The position numbers and the translations under genes were made by a program. From positions 51,973-115,972 of the IMG/VR virus record IMGVR_UViG_3300028392_000038: a DNA stretch of 64,000 nucleotides; one strand, written 5' to 3'. Below the pieces are notes generated by a model, which saw only the letters and a program-made list of their open reading frames with translations, had not been told where the DNA came from and did no database searches. This stretch comes from a virus. Shown here piece after piece: positions 1,871-64,000 of the stretch (the first letter of the stretch is position 1; the number at the start of each line of letters is the position of its first letter).

Positions 1871-2006
1871 TGTGAATATTATGTTTCATCTATATATTAA
1901 ATAATTTTTACTCTTTTTATTAAAAAACATTGGAAATTTTAAAACAAAGACATATATTTTTTATATATAATACTCAAATACAAAAAAAACAAAAAATAAA
2001 ATACCT

Positions 2007-2195
2007 ATGAAAAAAATCGCAATCGTATTATTCGCAGTAATCTCTTTAACATCTTGTGGTGGTGGAGAAGCTAAATGTGAAGGTAGTAACTGTGACTCAA
2101 CAGCAGTTGTAGCACCAGTAGCTGACTCTTTAGCTCCAGTAGCAGATACATTAGCAGTGGATACTACAGCAGTAGTTACTCCAACTGTTAAGTAA
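2007..2195 (+). CDS. small lipoprotein
   Basis: Signal peptide MKKIAIVLFAVISLTS-C (lipobox); Ala/Val/Pro/Thr-rich mature part with DST, DSL, DTL, DTT. Confidence 0.8.
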   Translation: MKKIAIVLFAVISLTSCGGGEAKCEGSNCDSTAVVAPVADSLAPVADTLAVDTTAVVTPTVK

Positions 2196-2220
2196 TTATT
2201 AACTACTTCCGAATGAAACT

Positions 2221-2249
2221 AAAAGAGAGAATTAAATTCTCTCTTTTTT
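2221..2249 (+). terminator. intrinsic terminator
   Basis: AAAAGAGAGAATT/AATTCTCTCTTTT inverted repeat with T-tract. Confidence 0.75.
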
Positions 2250-2287
2250 ATTTTTAAACTTATTCAAGTAAATTATAAATAATTAAT

Positions 2288-15610: not shown

Positions 15611-15653
15611 ATTTTAATTTCAAAACTTTCTTTTTTTATTTTATATAAAATGT

Positions 15654-15779
15654 ATGACTAAAGAAGAAAAAATTAAAAAGATAGAGTCATTAAGGAAACA
15701 AGCGACAGAGTTAAAAAAAGAGGTAGACTATTTTAATGCCCTCCAATTAGCCTTGAAGTTGGTACTTAATGGTTCTTAT
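15654..15779 (+). CDS. family B DNA polymerase C-terminal subunit, 5' segment (fingers helix up to motif B Tyr)
   Basis: QLALKLVLNGSY = motif B KxxxNSxYG lacking the final G. Confidence 0.85.
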
Positions 15780-15820
15780 TTTTTACCCCCTATTTTGAAA
15801 AGAATAGGGGGGAAGATTAA
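15780..15820 (+). other. 41-nt hairpin insertion (coding gap) inside polymerase motif B
   Basis: TTTTTACCCCCTATTTT-GAAA-AGAATAGGGGGGAAGATTAA between TAT (Y) and GGA (G); its removal restores NGSY-GAFATSYF in frame. Confidence 0.85.
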
Positions 15821-17131
15821 GGAGCATTTGCAACAAGCTACTTCATATTATATAATAATCACGTAGCAGGTACAATCACAGCACAAGGCCGTGACCTTAC
15901 CAAAACAATGGATAAGGTTAATGAAGACTATTGGTATAATCAATGGCAAAATGACCATGAACTTCACTATAAAATGGGTATTAAAAACATAACACCTATT
16001 TCAAAAGATGAACATGTTTCTATTTATGCTGATACAGATTCATTATTTGTTTCATTCAAACCAGCAGTAGATCATTGTGACTGGACCAATCTTATATTCA
16101 ATGATGATTATCTTAATTCAGTAGATAAAAAGTTCATCATCCTTTCTAAAGAACTTCCAAAATTCAACAATACTAATTGTGTAGGAACTGCGCATAATAT
16201 TAAAGAGTTTAGTGAACTATTAAACGCAGAACATGAGTTAGTTTTAATATGTGGTAACTTTGTTAAAGATAGAGATTTAGTAAAGATGATTAAATCTGGT
16301 TCTGTAAAGAATGAGATAAAATGGAATTGGTCTAATGAAATAGATTTCATACAAGGATTAGACCATTATAGATATGGTGGTTATTTTAAAAAGTGTTTAG
16401 AAGATTATGCTGGATCTTTTGGTGTAGAGAACAAAGAAGACTTTGAGTTAGAAAGAATATCAGAATCTATTATCAATATTGCTAAAAAGAAATACATTCA
16501 ACATATCTTATTTGAAGATGGTATTCCTTATGATAGATTAAGTTATATCTATCCTAAAGGTGTAGAACTTGTTAGGTCATCTACTCCAGCTTTTGCTAGA
16601 GATAAAATTGTTGGTATTGTTAAATATTTATTCACACATCCTGATACTTTTAATATTAAAGATTTACTAAAACTAGTTAAAGGACTAAGAAAAGAATTTG
16701 AATTGGCGGATATAGATGATATTTGTATGCAATCTTCTGTTTCTAACTATGAAATAAAAGTTCTTAATGATAAGTCATTGCCTTTAAACTTTATAAGTGG
16801 TGCTCACTTTGCGGTTAAGTCAGCAGCTCATCATAACTATCTTTTACTAAAGAGTAAAGAATATCAACAGAAATATGAGTTTATAAAATCAGGTAATAAG
16901 ATTAAATATTATTGTTGTAAAGATAAATCTATAACTGATATGTTTGCTTATACTCGTGGTTCTTTTCCGGTTGAGTTTGCTCCACCTATTGATTATGATG
17001 AACAGTTCTCTAAGTCTATCTTATCTCCTATCAATTCAATTATTGAACCATTAGGAATGCCTGAGATTACTAAAAGGTTGTCGGTGGTGATGGATATTTT
17101 CTCAGGTATGGGTGGAAAAGGAGCTTTTTAA
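15821..17131 (+). CDS. family B DNA polymerase C-terminal subunit, 3' segment (palm/thumb)
   Basis: Frame opens at GGA 15821: GAFATSYFILYNNHVAGTITAQGR, then YADTDS (motif C), AKKKY, KGVELVRSSTP. Confidence 0.9.
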   Translation, partial: GAFATSYFILYNNHVAGTITAQGRDLTKTMDKVNEDYWYNQWQNDHELHYKMGIKNITPISKDEHVSIYADTDSLFVSFKPAVDHCDWTNLIFNDDYLNSVDKKFIILSKELPKFNNTNCVGTAHNIKEFSELLNAEHELVLICGNFVKDRDLVKMIKSGSVKNEIKWNWSNEIDFIQGLDHYRYGGYFKKCLEDYAGSFGVENKEDFELERISESIINIAKKKYIQHILFEDGIPYDRLSYIYPKGVELVRSSTPAFARDKIVGIVKYLFTHPDTFNIKDLLKLVKGLRKEFELADIDDICMQSSVSNYEIKVLNDKSLPLNFISGAHFAVKSAAHHNYLLLKSKEYQQKYEFIKSGNKIKYYCCKDKSITDMFAYTRGSFPVEFAPPIDYDEQFSKSILSPINSIIEPLGMPEITKRLSVVMDIFSGMGGKGAF

Positions 17132-44956: not shown

Positions 44957-44967
44957 TATATACCATT

Positions 44968-46596
44968 GTGATAATTAAGAAATTTAACGATTGGTCGCCT
45001 GTTAATGAAGAGGCATCTCCTAGACTCCCAGTTAGTGAAGAGTTCTGGACTAGAAAAGGCAAAAGTAAGAAAGTTGCCTTATATACTCATGATGATATGG
45101 ATGGAATATTCTGTGCTATTGAGATGAAAAAGTGGTTACTTAACAAAGGTTTCACAATTGAAAAATACGGTATTCTTAATTATTCAGAAGGTTGGAAATA
45201 TACAACTTTAGACCCTACCCTAATTAATATAGTATTAGACTTTGCAAATATGCCTGGTGATGAAAGAGATGAACAGATTGATTATTATTTAGATCATCAT
45301 GGTTTATTCTCAGCAGAAGATTTAGAAAAATATAAAAGTTCTCCAGTTCAAAAGAAAAAAACAAACTCAGCTTATGAAGCAGTTTGTCAAGCACTGGGAG
45401 TACCACAAGATGAATTAACTTTATCAGTTATTGATATGATTGACTCAGCTAGATATCAAGATTATGGTGTTAGTTGGCAAAGACTACTTGACTTTAATTT
45501 ATCAGATATTAAGAAGTCAGACAAAACAAGATTAGAATTTGGAGCGGCTTTCAATCAATTCTTAAAAAGAGGAGATACTAAGACTTTGATATCTGTTATT
45601 CACAATTGTAAAGACGCTTCTATCTATTCAATATTCAATACAATGAAACAAGTTTATGGTGAGCATAATGTTCATACTGGTTATAGAAAAGGACAACCTA
45701 AAGATTTTGAAGAAGATTCAAGATGGAGATTGGCTACAATGCAACAAAGAACTAGAGGAAAAGGAACTAAAAAGATTTATAACACTCAAGAAGAATTCTT
45801 AAAGGATTTTCAATTTGGTGGATTAATAAGATTAGATGGTTATGTTTTAATTGGTGAATTAGCTTTCATACCAACAGGAACTTGGGCAAATGCTTTAAGA
45901 GCAAGAACAATCATTGAAAAGGATTTCAATGATGGTTTAATATCTAAAGAACCTAAATTTATATTATTACAATATGGTGGAACTCTACAAGTATGTTCTT
46001 ATAAAAAGATAGCTGAAACAGAAGAACTTCCTACATTAAAAGGTGGTGGATTTGTTGATGATTTAGGTAAGTATATGACCGGTCTACTAGATAATTTCAA
46101 ATTACATTTAGGATATTATGATCCAGATACATCAATTGGGCAAGATGAAATAACTGTTTCTGGTGGACACGGTGGTATTGGTTCTATCTCTAATGTATTT
46201 GGAACTTGTGATGTTGATCCATATAAAGGATTTAGATTTATTGATATTTTCAAAAATAAGATTATCTCAGATTTATCAGGGGTTAAATTAAATATGGGGT
46301 TAAAATGGAGTGAACCATCAGAAGGAAAACAAACTGAACCAGCTGTTGATAACAAAGTTATACCAACTGAAAATGTAACTAAACTTGATAAATATGGTAA
46401 AGCTATTAAGACCGAAGAAAGCTATGAATATCAATTAGTTAATAAAGAAGGTAGACCAACTACAGTTTCTAAAGAAGATTTTATAAAAGCAGGATCTACT
46501 AAAGCAATGAAAACTGATAGAAAATCTTTAATGACTATTGATCACAATAATAAGAAAGTGATTGCTAAGTTTGAAGGTTTTAAGTATAAAGGTTAA
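44968..46596 (+). CDS. DHH-family phosphoesterase with N- and C-terminal tags
   Basis: THDDMDG, VLDF, LDHH, SGGHGG; N-terminus MIIKKFNDW..VNE; C-terminus AKFEGFKYKG. Confidence 0.75.
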   Translation: MIIKKFNDWSPVNEEASPRLPVSEEFWTRKGKSKKVALYTHDDMDGIFCAIEMKKWLLNKGFTIEKYGILNYSEGWKYTTLDPTLINIVLDFANMPGDERDEQIDYYLDHHGLFSAEDLEKYKSSPVQKKKTNSAYEAVCQALGVPQDELTLSVIDMIDSARYQDYGVSWQRLLDFNLSDIKKSDKTRLEFGAAFNQFLKRGDTKTLISVIHNCKDASIYSIFNTMKQVYGEHNVHTGYRKGQPKDFEEDSRWRLATMQQRTRGKGTKKIYNTQEEFLKDFQFGGLIRLDGYVLIGELAFIPTGTWANALRARTIIEKDFNDGLISKEPKFILLQYGGTLQVCSYKKIAETEELPTLKGGGFVDDLGKYMTGLLDNFKLHLGYYDPDTSIGQDEITVSGGHGGIGSISNVFGTCDVDPYKGFRFIDIFKNKIISDLSGVKLNMGLKWSEPSEGKQTEPAVDNKVIPTENVTKLDKYGKAIKTEESYEYQLVNKEGRPTTVSKEDFIKAGSTKAMKTDRKSLMTIDHNNKKVIAKFEGFKYKG

Positions 46597-61388: not shown

Positions 61389-61916
61389 ATGAAAATATCA
61401 ATTGGTTGTGACCACGCTGCTTGGGAACTTAAAGAAAAAGTAAAGCAGTATCTTTCCACAAAATCTGGAATTGAAGTAAATGACAAGGGATGTTACTCAT
61501 CTGAAAGATGTGATTACCCTGACTTCGGACATGCTGTTGCAAAAGATGTAACAGAAAATAAATGCGATTTTGGTATTCTAATGTGTGGTTCCGGAAACGG
61601 AATTAATATGACTGCTAATAAATGGTCTGGTGTCCGTTCAGCTCTTTGTTGGAATTCAGAAATTGCTAATATGGCTCGCCTACATAATGATGCTAATATA
61701 TTAACCTTACCAGGTAGATATATTTCAGAAGAAGAAGCATTCAAATGTGTTGATGAATTTATTAATACAGGATTTGAAGGTGGTAGACATACAGACAGAA
61801 TAAATAAAATTCCAAAATATTTTAAAAATATTTTTAGAAGTACCAAAACTCACCTAAATGAGGTTTGGAGAGGATTGCAAGATATCCAAGATAAAGGATT
61901 AGGCCCAAAGTCATAA
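61389..61916 (+). CDS. rpiB: ribose-5-phosphate isomerase B with C-terminal extension
   Basis: IGCDHA, DYPD, CGSGNG, ANK..GVR.A, ARLHNDANIL, FEGGRH. Confidence 0.95.
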   Translation: MKISIGCDHAAWELKEKVKQYLSTKSGIEVNDKGCYSSERCDYPDFGHAVAKDVTENKCDFGILMCGSGNGINMTANKWSGVRSALCWNSEIANMARLHNDANILTLPGRYISEEEAFKCVDEFINTGFEGGRHTDRINKIPKYFKNIFRSTKTHLNEVWRGLQDIQDKGLGPKS

Positions 61917-62629: not shown

Positions 62630-63298
62630 ATGAATCACATCAAACCATATAGGCTATTTGAATCTGTTGAGAAAGAATCAATTGGACTAATAGATAAATT
62701 TAAAAGAGATTATGGTACTGATTTAGATATGAAGTTGAAACCATATCAAATTGAAATAATAAATAAAGCTTTCTCACACTTTGATAAAAAATTCATTAAG
62801 AATAGAATACAAAAGATAAAATTAAAGGATTTAGGTGGTGTTCATGGTAAGTGGACTGATACAGAGAAGAAACATCAAATGACACTTAATCCAACTATCT
62901 TTGATTTTAAAAGACAGTTTGATAGTTATGTTCCTTATAAAATATTTGTAATAGTTCATGAAATTGGTCATTGTATAGACCATATTGAAAAAATATCATA
63001 TTCTAAAAAGTGGCAAGCAATATCAGGCTGGAAAAAGTGTGATATCAATGATAGAATACCAGAGGGTTATGATAGGTACATCGAGAAAAGAAAAGGTAGA
63101 GAAGAAGCGGGTCCTAAAAAGTCAGATTGGGTTTATAAAGAAGGATCTAATTTTTGTAGAAAATATTCTTCAAGAAATCCAAGAGAAGATTTTGCGGATT
63201 CATTTGCATTTGCGGTATTCAAAGACTATGATAAGTTTGAAGGAGAAGGTGGAAAAGAAAAGTTACAAATTATAAAAGAATTACTTTCAAAAATTTAA
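62630..63298 (+). CDS. zincin metallopeptidase-like protein with N-terminal tag
   Basis: VHEIGH...YSSRNPREDFADSF; MNHIKPYRLFES. Confidence 0.7.
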   Translation: MNHIKPYRLFESVEKESIGLIDKFKRDYGTDLDMKLKPYQIEIINKAFSHFDKKFIKNRIQKIKLKDLGGVHGKWTDTEKKHQMTLNPTIFDFKRQFDSYVPYKIFVIVHEIGHCIDHIEKISYSKKWQAISGWKKCDINDRIPEGYDRYIEKRKGREEAGPKKSDWVYKEGSNFCRKYSSRNPREDFADSFAFAVFKDYDKFEGEGGKEKLQIIKELLSKI

Positions 63299-63301
63299 AA
63301 T

Positions 63302-63563
63302 AAAAAAACCGAAAAATGAATTTTGCGACTAATTCATTATTTCGGATTTCTTAACAAGATTTCAGAATTCGCGGTTCATTCATCTTTATCATACACCTTT
63401 TAATTCAATTGTGTCGGTATGACAGACACTAATCTACTGCGGGACCAACAGATTTTTCATCCCATAACCTCGGTAAAGGTTATCTCATTTTTCACCACGA
63501 GTTACCGCAAGTGACTTATATGAGAATATTTATTAGTTTGGTTTCGGTAAAACTTAATTACCT
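63302..63563 (-). ncRNA. candidate structured ncRNA (about 260 nt) with pseudoknots
   Basis: No ORF; upstream TACATTTG promoter (63569-63576, minus strand); several helices with G-U pairs; loop-distal complementarities; terminal hairpin with U-tract. Confidence 0.6.
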
Positions 63564-63644
63564 TATAACAAATGTAAGAATAATTTTTTAAATAACAAGG
63601 TATTTTTTTATATATAACTCACAAAAAAAATAAATATAAAAGAA

Positions 63645-64000
63645 ATGGAAGAATCATTTGGACCACACATCACTATTGACCTTAAAGGTTGCCCTAAAGA
63701 AATTTTATCAAACTACAATTTACACTTTGATTACCTTAAAATGTTACCAGGATTAATCCAAATGACACCAATTACACAACCTTATGTTTTCCCATATGCT
63801 GGTTTAATTCCAAGTGATAGAGGAATAACAGGAATCGTAATTATTGCTGAAAGTCATTTATCAGTTCACTCTTTTGAAGAAAAAGGATATTCATTTATTG
63901 ATATATTTTCTTGTAAAGATTTTGATGTTGAAAAGGCAATTGAGATAACTTTAGAGATATTTAAACCAGAAAGCCATGAGGTTAATGTAGTTAAAAGAGG
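63645..64000 (+). CDS. speD: S-adenosylmethionine decarboxylase proenzyme (truncated by window end)
   Basis: Read from sequence: MEESFGPHITIDLKGC...GITGIVIIAESHLSVHSFEEKGYSFIDIFSCK. Confidence 0.92.
   Translation, partial: MEESFGPHITIDLKGCPKEILSNYNLHFDYLKMLPGLIQMTPITQPYVFPYAGLIPSDRGITGIVIIAESHLSVHSFEEKGYSFIDIFSCKDFDVEKAIEITLEIFKPESHEVNVVKR

Follow-up and report, generated by a model that had tools for sequence, protein, structure and literature searches.

A candidate non-coding RNA gene with two pseudoknots and two loop-loop contacts in large, mostly freshwater phages

Does a gap without recognizable genes, close to the end of a phage contig, encode a structured RNA and, if so, of which kind? 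The window (the whole stretch of 64,000 nucleotides that was analysed) comprises the final 64 kb of an IMG/VR phage contig of 115,972 bp, and the gap, at 63299-63644, is bordered by two plus-strand reading frames (table 1). A first-pass annotation had described the gap as free of ORFs and GC-rich, and as the site of a compact folded RNA on the minus strand, with up to three pseudoknots, its own promoter and terminator and early expression, distinct from tRNA, tmRNA, RNase P and known ribozymes.

The locus, its relatives and its transcription signals

The description of the gap itself holds. No ORF in it exceeds 31 aa, all the minus-strand elements that had been named are found at their positions, and the GC content is 33.5% in the RNA and 38.4% in the RNA core, compared with 28.1% in the window, a median of 22.8% in the other ORF-free gaps and 12.5% in the promoter spacer. 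The predicted minus-strand fold has a free energy of -63.3 kcal/mol, with z = -2.56 against shuffles (z = -1.65 for the plus strand).

With Rfam 15 at gathering threshold, 0 matches were obtained in the 64-kb window, and a permissive scan (E up to 10) of positions 63200-63750 returned three chance-level matches with E values of 0.55-5.5. Extension of the Rfam scan to 14 homologous loci revealed no family recurring on the RNA, and the chance-level matches, to snoRNAs, a group II intron fragment and a miRNA, were not recurrent. ARAGORN detected no tRNA or tmRNA in the window and none at the RNA in 43 homologous loci, so that a tRNA or tRNA-like RNA was discarded. The RNA is not a tRNA, a tmRNA, RNase P or a catalogued ribozyme by these searches, and, with no family at threshold, its novelty stands. 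Among further candidates, an SD-like AAAGGUG followed by a mini-ORF proved not to be conserved, and a 6S-like promoter mimic, group I intron P/Q-like boxes and an SRP Alu domain were dropped as no supporting feature was found for them.

Relatives of the RNA are present in other phages. Comparison with phage records by blastn yielded matches of 78-82% identity that do not extend beyond the RNA, in LR745206 (635 kb) and LR756502 (642 kb), the former a megaphage from a subsurface sample in Japan and the latter from a lake in France, with only approximately 31% of their genes in common (PMC9723777). Scans with exact patterns added 7 more IMG/VR contigs and 90 metagenome contigs, mostly from lakes, as judged by name; the IMG/VR phage contigs that carry the RNA are 26-436 kb long. 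A covariance model (R1) was built from nine sequences and confirmed the pattern-scan matches at 120-290 bits. The family obtained with the pattern scans and the model amounts to 99 matches, 83 of them distinct, and the recurrence of the element in 83 distinct sequences with compensatory changes is far beyond chance. The model also discriminates: the looser pattern AACCTCGGYAAN{18,36}TTRCCG fetched more than 117 viral loci, of which the covariance model accepted a single one, already known (L003), and rejected approx. 115. The family was sampled through fixed sequence patterns and, therefore, divergent members are missing from it.

A single copy per genome was found in 5 of the 5 genomes or records examined. 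The sole match in a cellular genome lies on a 4.8-kb contig of a Bacteroidetes MAG of 551 contigs, and the RNA was not found in the other 67 genomes of the order of that MAG; the contig is therefore read as phage DNA binned with the cell, and a cellular homologue was rejected. As far as the search extended, the carriers appear to form a clade of large, AT-rich, mostly freshwater phages with one RNA copy each, and the RNA appears to be limited to this one clade of large aquatic phages.

The genes that flank the RNA in the 99 loci occur in at least two arrangements, between which the RNA is inverted relative to its neighbours. In the first (62 of the 99 loci) the RNA is preceded on the same strand, at approximately 33 nt, by the end of a gene for a membrane protein of approximately 83 aa, and is followed by convergent genes. 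In the second (26 loci, including the window) speD lies upstream in divergent orientation, and the orientation of the RNA to the rpiB side is reversed. The downstream gene families differ between the arrangements, the next gene downstream is convergent in the window and in LR745206, and no same-strand gene consistently adjoins the RNA across the 99 loci. At the level of gene order, the element is shown to be mobile relative to its neighbour genes, with position and orientation changing between lineages. Synteny around the RNA is conserved, which may reflect mere relatedness. The neighbourhood points to no partner protein and to no RNA-related family, the Pfam assignments being AdoMet decarboxylase, RpiB, a sub-threshold Zn-peptidase and a borderline Smr, and no link to packaging genes was seen in the flanking genes. 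No tRNA gene adjoins the RNA in 43 loci; the nearest ones, in 5 of these, lie at a distance of over 1.6 kb.

The transcription signals are conserved in position. In 70 of 72 distinct upstream regions the octamer TAnnTTTG occupies a fixed position that directly precedes the model start, and a TTG is found at the matching spacing in 64 of the 72 (TTTG in 57). In most relatives this TTTG lies approximately 19-20 nt above the -7 box and is preceded by an A-rich run. TAnnTTTG is the -7 box of Bacteroidota sigma-A promoters, in which it occupies positions -12 to -5 (PMC9723704), leading to a predicted start near 63564, at the base of P1. In DNA this AT-rich the motif arises often by chance, and over the whole window it is not enriched (103 found versus 109 expected); thus, the promoter evidence is the positional conservation of the box and not its frequency, and no genome-wide promoter claim is made. 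The box is retained where the upstream membrane-protein gene is absent, as in the window, and the terminal hairpin P8 with its U tract is present in all members, with changing sequence and length. An own promoter and terminator, as proposed initially, are supported by these comparisons, both signals being positionally conserved while the flanking genes differ. Host RNA polymerase with sigma-A would transcribe the RNA from approximately 63564 and end at the U7 tract and, by taking into account the host sigma-A-type promoter, the RNA would probably appear as soon as infection starts. The existence of the transcript, its ends and the time of its expression are predictions from these signals. The promoters of the carrier phages also point to Bacteroidota hosts.

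Table 1. Coordinates of the candidate RNA gene, its predicted elements and the bordering genes in the window.
Feature	Position	Strand	Remarks
Candidate RNA gene	~63564-63302	minus	promoter, ~260-nt RNA, hairpin and U7 terminator
Predicted promoter, TTG-N19-TACATTTG		minus	Bacteroidota-type
-33-like TTG	63596..63598	minus	19 nt upstream of the -7 box
-7 box, TACATTTG	63569..63576	minus	Bacteroidota sigma-A consensus TAnnTTTG
P1 hairpin, GGUAA/UUACC	63546..63562	minus	7-nt loop; 100% paired, 5/5 pairs changed on both sides
Single-stranded joiner, CGAAACC...AAYAAAUAU	63526..63545	minus	near-invariant unpaired columns
P2 arm	63484..63524	minus	P2a (CUCAU/AUGAG), A-rich internal loop, P2b (GUCAC/GUGGU), apical hexaloop
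UCUCAU/AUGAGA	63525-63520 / 63488-63483	minus	helix as given in the first-pass annotation
P2 hexaloop, CGGUAA	63507-63502	minus	closing pair 63/70 covaries, 96% paired
P3 hairpin, AUAACCU/AGGUUAU	63464..63483	minus	97.4% paired, 7/7 pairs covary
P3 hexaloop, UUACCG	63476-63471	minus	pairs with the P2 hexaloop (KLa)
Invariant core	63433..63463	minus	31 nt in 76/76 full-length sequences
GGGAU, 5' strand of PKb	63463-63459	minus	pairs with GUCCC
GUCCC, in the P4 loop (GUCCCG)	63445-63441	minus	PKb, H-type pseudoknot
P4, AAUCUGUUG/CAGUAGAUU (UCUGUUG/CAGUAGA)		minus	invariant tandem G-U/U-G pairs
P5 hairpin, GUGUC/GACAC	63411..63429	minus	97.6% paired, 6/6 pairs changed on both sides
P5 loop, GUCAUAC(C), 5' strand of PKc	63423-63417	minus	GUCAUACC
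Conserved single-stranded GAAUUAAAAGG	63396..63406	minus	near-invariant unpaired columns
GUAUGAU, 3' strand of PKc	63388..63394	minus	pairs with the P5 loop
P6 (AAGAU/AUCUU) around P7 (GAAU/AUUC)	63356..63386	minus	both with changes on both sides
P7 loop, GCGA, 5' strand of KLd	63372-63369	minus	pairs with the P8 loop
P8 long terminal hairpin, loop AGUCGCAA, then U7	63302..63346	minus	predicted intrinsic terminator
P8 loop, UCGC	63328-63325	minus	3' strand of KLd
ORF with weak (sub-threshold) Pfam Zn-peptidase match	62630-63298	plus	borders the gap
AdoMet decarboxylase gene	63645 onward	plus	borders the gap on the other side

Architecture of the RNA

By comparative evidence, the RNA is shown to consist of eight predicted helices (P1-P8), two pseudoknots (PKb and PKc) and two hexaloop-type kissing contacts (KLa and KLd). 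An RNAalifold fold of nine sequences was found to be partly wrong in its long-range nesting, with the P2 region paired with the 3' strand of PKc, and was replaced by a hand-derived model. In an alignment of 83 sequences, itself fitted to a model built from the hand-derived structure, the final 86 pairs, five of which were selected post hoc by a covariation scan of the same alignment, form a standard pair in 93.0% of the cells. The corresponding value is 32-42% when the 3' partners are slid by 1-3 columns. Both sides changed at 64 of the 86 pairs, the observed values were attained in 0 of 500 shuffles, and the tertiary pairs switched independently several times on the tree. The pairing is also strand specific, the same model being 85.5% paired on the complement, with 9% of the cells occupied by G-U pairs, in agreement with the original choice of the minus strand. 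The changes on both sides at 64 of the 86 pairs, along with the strand preference derived from G-U pairs, indicate selection on RNA pairing rather than on DNA or protein.

The compact fold with several pseudoknots that had been drawn from a single sequence is thus borne out by the family, whose helices hold on the 83 sequences. The exact set of three pseudoknots is not. Two of them, formed by GGGAU with GUCCC and by the P5 loop with GUAUGA, correspond to PKb and PKc, whereas the third, UUGCGG with CCGCGA, is paired in 63.5% of the cells of the family alignment versus 62.4% in shuffles, and was therefore rejected as a coincidence of the window sequence. The two segments belong instead to KLa and KLd, respectively, contacts that had been missed.

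The 5' part of the molecule is the most constrained in length, the segments of the first 200 nt varying by at most 1-2 nt. After P1, the joiner of near-invariant unpaired nucleotides is 20-21 nt long in 72 of 76 sequences. In the P2 arm, P2a is paired in 89% of the cells, all 6 of its pairs have changed on both sides, and its register (MAFFT/CM) is one base apart between two subgroups; P2b is 77% paired. The apical loop of P2 (CGGYAA) is complementary to that of P3 (UURCCG), and this contact, KLa, is 100% paired in 82 sequences in spite of changes from C-G to U-A (8 sequences), from G-C to A-U (2 sequences) and, at a further pair, from C-G to U-A (1 sequence). These correspond to at least six independent switches on the tree, and both loops have a covarying closing pair of their own.

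Next comes the 31-nt core, in which the order GGGAU...CUGUUG-GUCCC-G-CAGUAG is nearly invariant. PKb is 100% paired, and the only changes in it, one from A-U to G-U and one from U-G to C-G, affect one side each and leave the pairing intact; these values are to be read by considering that the P4 sequence and GUCCC, being fixed in the metagenome search pattern, were unable to vary, while GGGAU was not fixed. From our own geometric reasoning, the single nucleotide that parts GUCCC from the 3' strand of P4 may leave the pseudoknot strained when both helices are fully formed. The second pseudoknot, PKc, between the P5 loop (GUCAUACC) and G-GUAUGAU, is 98.6% paired; of its 8 pairs, 7 have changed on both sides, with many independent switches on the tree. 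The joiner that contains GAAUUAAAAGG is 12 nt long in 75 of 76 sequences. Overall, the conserved unpaired stretches are CGAAACC, AAYAAAUAU, GAAUUAAAAGG and UUCUGAAAC.

The 3' part is more variable. P6 and P7 are 71.5% and 80.9% paired, respectively, and their register is ambiguous due to the tandem repeat GAAYGAAR. In P8 all 8 pairs of the outer stem covary and 97.1% of its cells are paired, compared with 82.6% for the inner stem. Overall, P1, P3, P5 and the outer stem of P8 are the best-supported helices, P2a holds as well, and pairing is lower in P2b, P6, P7 and the inner stem of P8. The length of P8 ranges from 27 to 44 nt and that of the P6-P8 linker from 0 to 11 nt, with the complementarity of the P8 loop to the P7 loop always kept. 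This contact, KLd, between UGYGA(AU) of P7 and (AU)UCRCA of P8, is 98.5% paired, and its U-A pair is replaced by C-G in 19 sequences, through at least four independent switches on the tree. Thus, we infer an RNA made of a rigid 5' body and a variable 3' arm, the loop of which always matches that of P7.

Comparison of the longest sense ORFs revealed no conserved ORF in the RNA family, the median longest ATG-started sense ORF being 11 aa. Compensatory changes, strand-specific G-U pairs, the absence of a conserved ORF and the transcription signals are the general marks by which a structured non-coding RNA gene would be recognized from sequence, and that the locus is a real structured RNA gene is held with high confidence.

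Possible modes of action

By taking into account the conserved features, we lean towards a free-standing gene for a compact, trans-acting non-coding RNA of approximately 260 nt that would serve as a ribonucleoprotein scaffold or decoy, an assignment that we consider somewhat better than even. The length-invariant 5' 200 nt, with the 31-nt pseudoknot and the A-rich single-stranded joiners, would form a rigid body that probably offers a conserved host or phage partner a specific binding surface or, possibly, an active site. The RNA would then act in trans as a scaffold or decoy, and not by antisense regulation or as a leader in cis. Such a role is favoured because the invariant pseudoknot and the conserved unpaired stretches resemble a recognition or active surface.

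The kissing contacts lend themselves to a different proposal, namely that the RNA self-assembles, with one or both loop-loop contacts formed between molecules and with dimers, rings or cages as the functional unit. In both contacts the apical loops are fully complementary, and the hairpins that bear them follow one another in sequence. P2 and P3 are 0 nt apart, each hexaloop being closed by its own covarying pair, and, by our own reasoning, P2 would have to bend sharply for a straight coaxial kiss to form with so close a neighbour. Moreover, the length variation of P8 and of the linker, with loop pairing kept, is a poor fit to a fixed intramolecular geometry. By analogy, a precedent may be seen in the kissing loops of ROOL and GOLLD, which were first read as tertiary contacts from covariation and turned out to be bridges between subunits (PMC12286853). 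However, covariation of the kissing contacts fits pairing within and between molecules alike. In the lysine riboswitch, loop-loop contacts between neighbouring arms are intramolecular, and a geometry of this type may also accommodate the contacts of the phage RNA. The loops are not palindromic, which makes a simple symmetric self-pairing of one loop impossible, and no tRNA islands are found nearby, unlike at many GOLLD and ROOL loci. On balance, self-assembly is regarded as unlikely. The specific version in which the P2/P3 and P7/P8 loop pairs are intermolecular 'hands' that build a ring, lattice or cage in the Bacteroidota cell, with the pseudoknot as the working surface, is given slightly less credit; if true, it would amount to a small quaternary RNA machine, encoded by the phage and without relation to pRNA, ROOL or GOLLD.

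A catalytic role, with the invariant core as an active site that cleaves, ligates or otherwise acts upon either the RNA itself or a substrate, is quite improbable. It would account for a 31-nt core that is invariant in sequence and length and for a body held by several pseudoknots, such conservation and tertiary complexity being typical of ribozymes and riboswitches. However, none of the self-cleaving, RNase P or intron families of Rfam matches the RNA, flanking exons are absent, and an own promoter and terminator leave no obvious reason for self-cleavage.

A shade more doubtful than catalysis is a cis-acting sensor, that is, a riboswitch-like aptamer controlling the P8 terminator and read-through into the downstream region. 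The RNA does end in a predicted intrinsic terminator whose loop is paired with an upstream loop, and the invariant pseudoknot and unpaired A-rich stretches are reminiscent of the ligand pockets of pseudoknotted riboswitches. What disfavours this proposal is the lack of a conserved downstream gene on the same strand: in both the window and LR745206 the gene that follows is convergent, none is consistently on the same strand across the 99 loci, and the downstream families differ between the two arrangements. Furthermore, the riboswitch families of Rfam gave no match, and the P8 contact engages the terminator loop and not its stem, so that no antiterminator alternative is visible. The RNA lacks the location that marks a riboswitch or other cis-regulatory leader, upstream of a gene or gene class under its control and on the strand of that gene.

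That the locus is not an RNA gene at all, and that its conservation stems from an element acting in the DNA, from a gene for a small peptide or from the 3' UTR of the upstream gene with its terminator, is hardly credible: the same-strand membrane-protein gene that ends approximately 33 nt upstream in 62 of the 99 loci implies that read-through transcripts may exist, and short ORFs of up to 31 aa are found in the gap of the window, but this reading is largely refuted by covariation (the 64 of 86 pairs changed on both sides and the G-U strand preference), by a median longest sense ORF of 11 aa with none conserved, and by the promoter box kept in loci without the upstream gene, the window included.

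With the trans-acting scaffold or decoy as the preferred reading, the interest of the RNA lies in its complexity. Folds with so many covarying long-range contacts usually turn out to be ribozymes, riboswitches or cores of RNA-protein machines, and new RNA classes of such complexity are rare and have often led to new biochemistry. At approximately 260 nt the RNA is small enough for cryo-EM, crystallography and complete mutagenesis, and the 83 distinct sequences already make a deep alignment, in which each contact is backed by multiple independent compensatory events. The carriers are uncultured megaphages of almost unknown biology, for which the Bacteroidota-type promoter offers a concrete handle on host assignment.

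Comparison with known RNAs

A pseudoknot-rich RNA of a few hundred nucleotides brings tmRNA to mind, and huge phages have been reported to carry tmRNA genes. However, the RNA described here has neither an acceptor stem formed by its ends nor a CCA end. Its 5' end is the local hairpin P1 and its 3' end the terminator, no tag ORF is conserved and ARAGORN is negative, so that tmRNA was discarded.

The packaging RNA (pRNA) of phi29 is also phage-encoded, is expressed from its own promoter and contains two complementary, covarying hairpin loops that pair loop to loop. It is built around a three-way junction with 4-nt interlocking loops and, to our knowledge, is known only in phi29-like podophages. 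In contrast, the present RNA combines two H-type pseudoknots with two loop pairs of 5-7 bp, and its carriers range from approximately 155 kb to over 600 kb. A phi29-type pRNA was set aside by considering that there is no match to RF00044 and no helix joining the 5' and 3' ends.

The lysine and purine riboswitches have adjoining arms with paired apical loops, a compact body and conserved unpaired nucleotides, and the phage RNA also pairs the apical loops of adjacent hairpins. It differs from them in its predicted own promoter, its constitutive-looking terminator and the lack of a same-strand downstream gene to control.

The closest likeness is to the stand-alone, often phage-borne RNAs of unknown function GOLLD, ROOL, OLE and the raiA motif, for which comparative analysis also revealed many covarying helices and long-range loop contacts. 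ROOL and OLE are several hundred nucleotides long. Many GOLLD RNAs exceed 800 nt, and kissing loops are prominent in such ornate orphan RNAs (PMC12286853). At approximately 260 nt the phage RNA is much smaller than GOLLD, ROOL and OLE, and it does not adjoin tRNA genes. The Rfam models of GOLLD, ROOL, OLE and raiA match it in neither sequence nor structure, and its assignment to GOLLD or ROOL was rejected, by taking into account also the 43 loci in which tRNA genes do not adjoin the RNA. The RNA offers a test case of whether RNA-only quaternary assemblies, as in GOLLD, ROOL and OLE, extend to smaller phage RNAs. It is rated here as a new family within a known general kind, that of the orphan 'ornate' phage RNAs, and it may already be listed, unnamed, in the existing catalogue of 10,006 unnamed viral candidate RNAs (PMC10690425).

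Genes flanking the RNA

On both sides of the RNA there are phage auxiliary metabolic genes, encoding ribose-5-phosphate isomerase B and S-adenosylmethionine decarboxylase, the latter incomplete as it is truncated at the contig end. In most relatives the gene of a small membrane protein ends approximately 33 nt before the RNA start, so that the RNA promoter overlaps the 3' end of this gene. Odd tRNA-like calls were also returned for two related contigs, L143 and L201, approximately 1.6 kb away from the RNA.

Features of the window and of related contigs
Feature	Location	Strand	Details
Ribose-5-phosphate isomerase B	window 61389-61916		PF02502, E = 8e-57
Pyruvoyl-type S-adenosylmethionine decarboxylase	window 63645-63998		PF02675, E = 8e-25
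Two-helix membrane protein, ~83 aa	L001 2741-3007	+	WSWWWV motif; homologues in 62 loci
tRNA-like gene	L143 6019-6092		ARAGORN; 2-base 'anticodon (tt)'
tRNA-like gene	L201 2306-2379		ARAGORN; 2-base 'anticodon (tt)'
ORF start with N-terminal signature	window 62630-62680
ORFs with N-terminal signature	L001 3620-3874, 4095-4466	-
ORFs with N-terminal signature	L002 2173-2568, 4265-4702	-
GC-richer ORF-free gaps	window 1871-2287, 15611-15907, 44957-45096		140-417 nt

Shared N-terminal signature and other ORF-free gaps

Many otherwise unrelated small and medium ORFs of these phages have in common an N-terminal signature, approximately M-[KRN]-[YH]-[LIV]-K-x-[FY]-x-x-F (for example, MNHIKPYRLFES, MRYLKPYKKFIE, MRHVKTFESFNY and MKYLKIFEDFVE), which may be a common targeting or processing signal. 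The GC content of three ORF-free gaps of the window is 26-36%, versus a gap median of 22.8%, and these gaps could be sites of more RNA genes or of regulatory elements.

The contig binned with a Bacteroidetes genome

A 4.8 kb contig bearing the phage RNA (L221, contig 57 of G003) was found binned in an 'uncultured Bacteroidetes' metagenome-assembled genome of 3.7 Mb and 551 contigs. The contig is probably phage DNA, either co-binned with that of the host or mis-binned, and its placement is, therefore, a weak hint of the host, which agrees with the Bacteroidota-like promoter type of the RNA.
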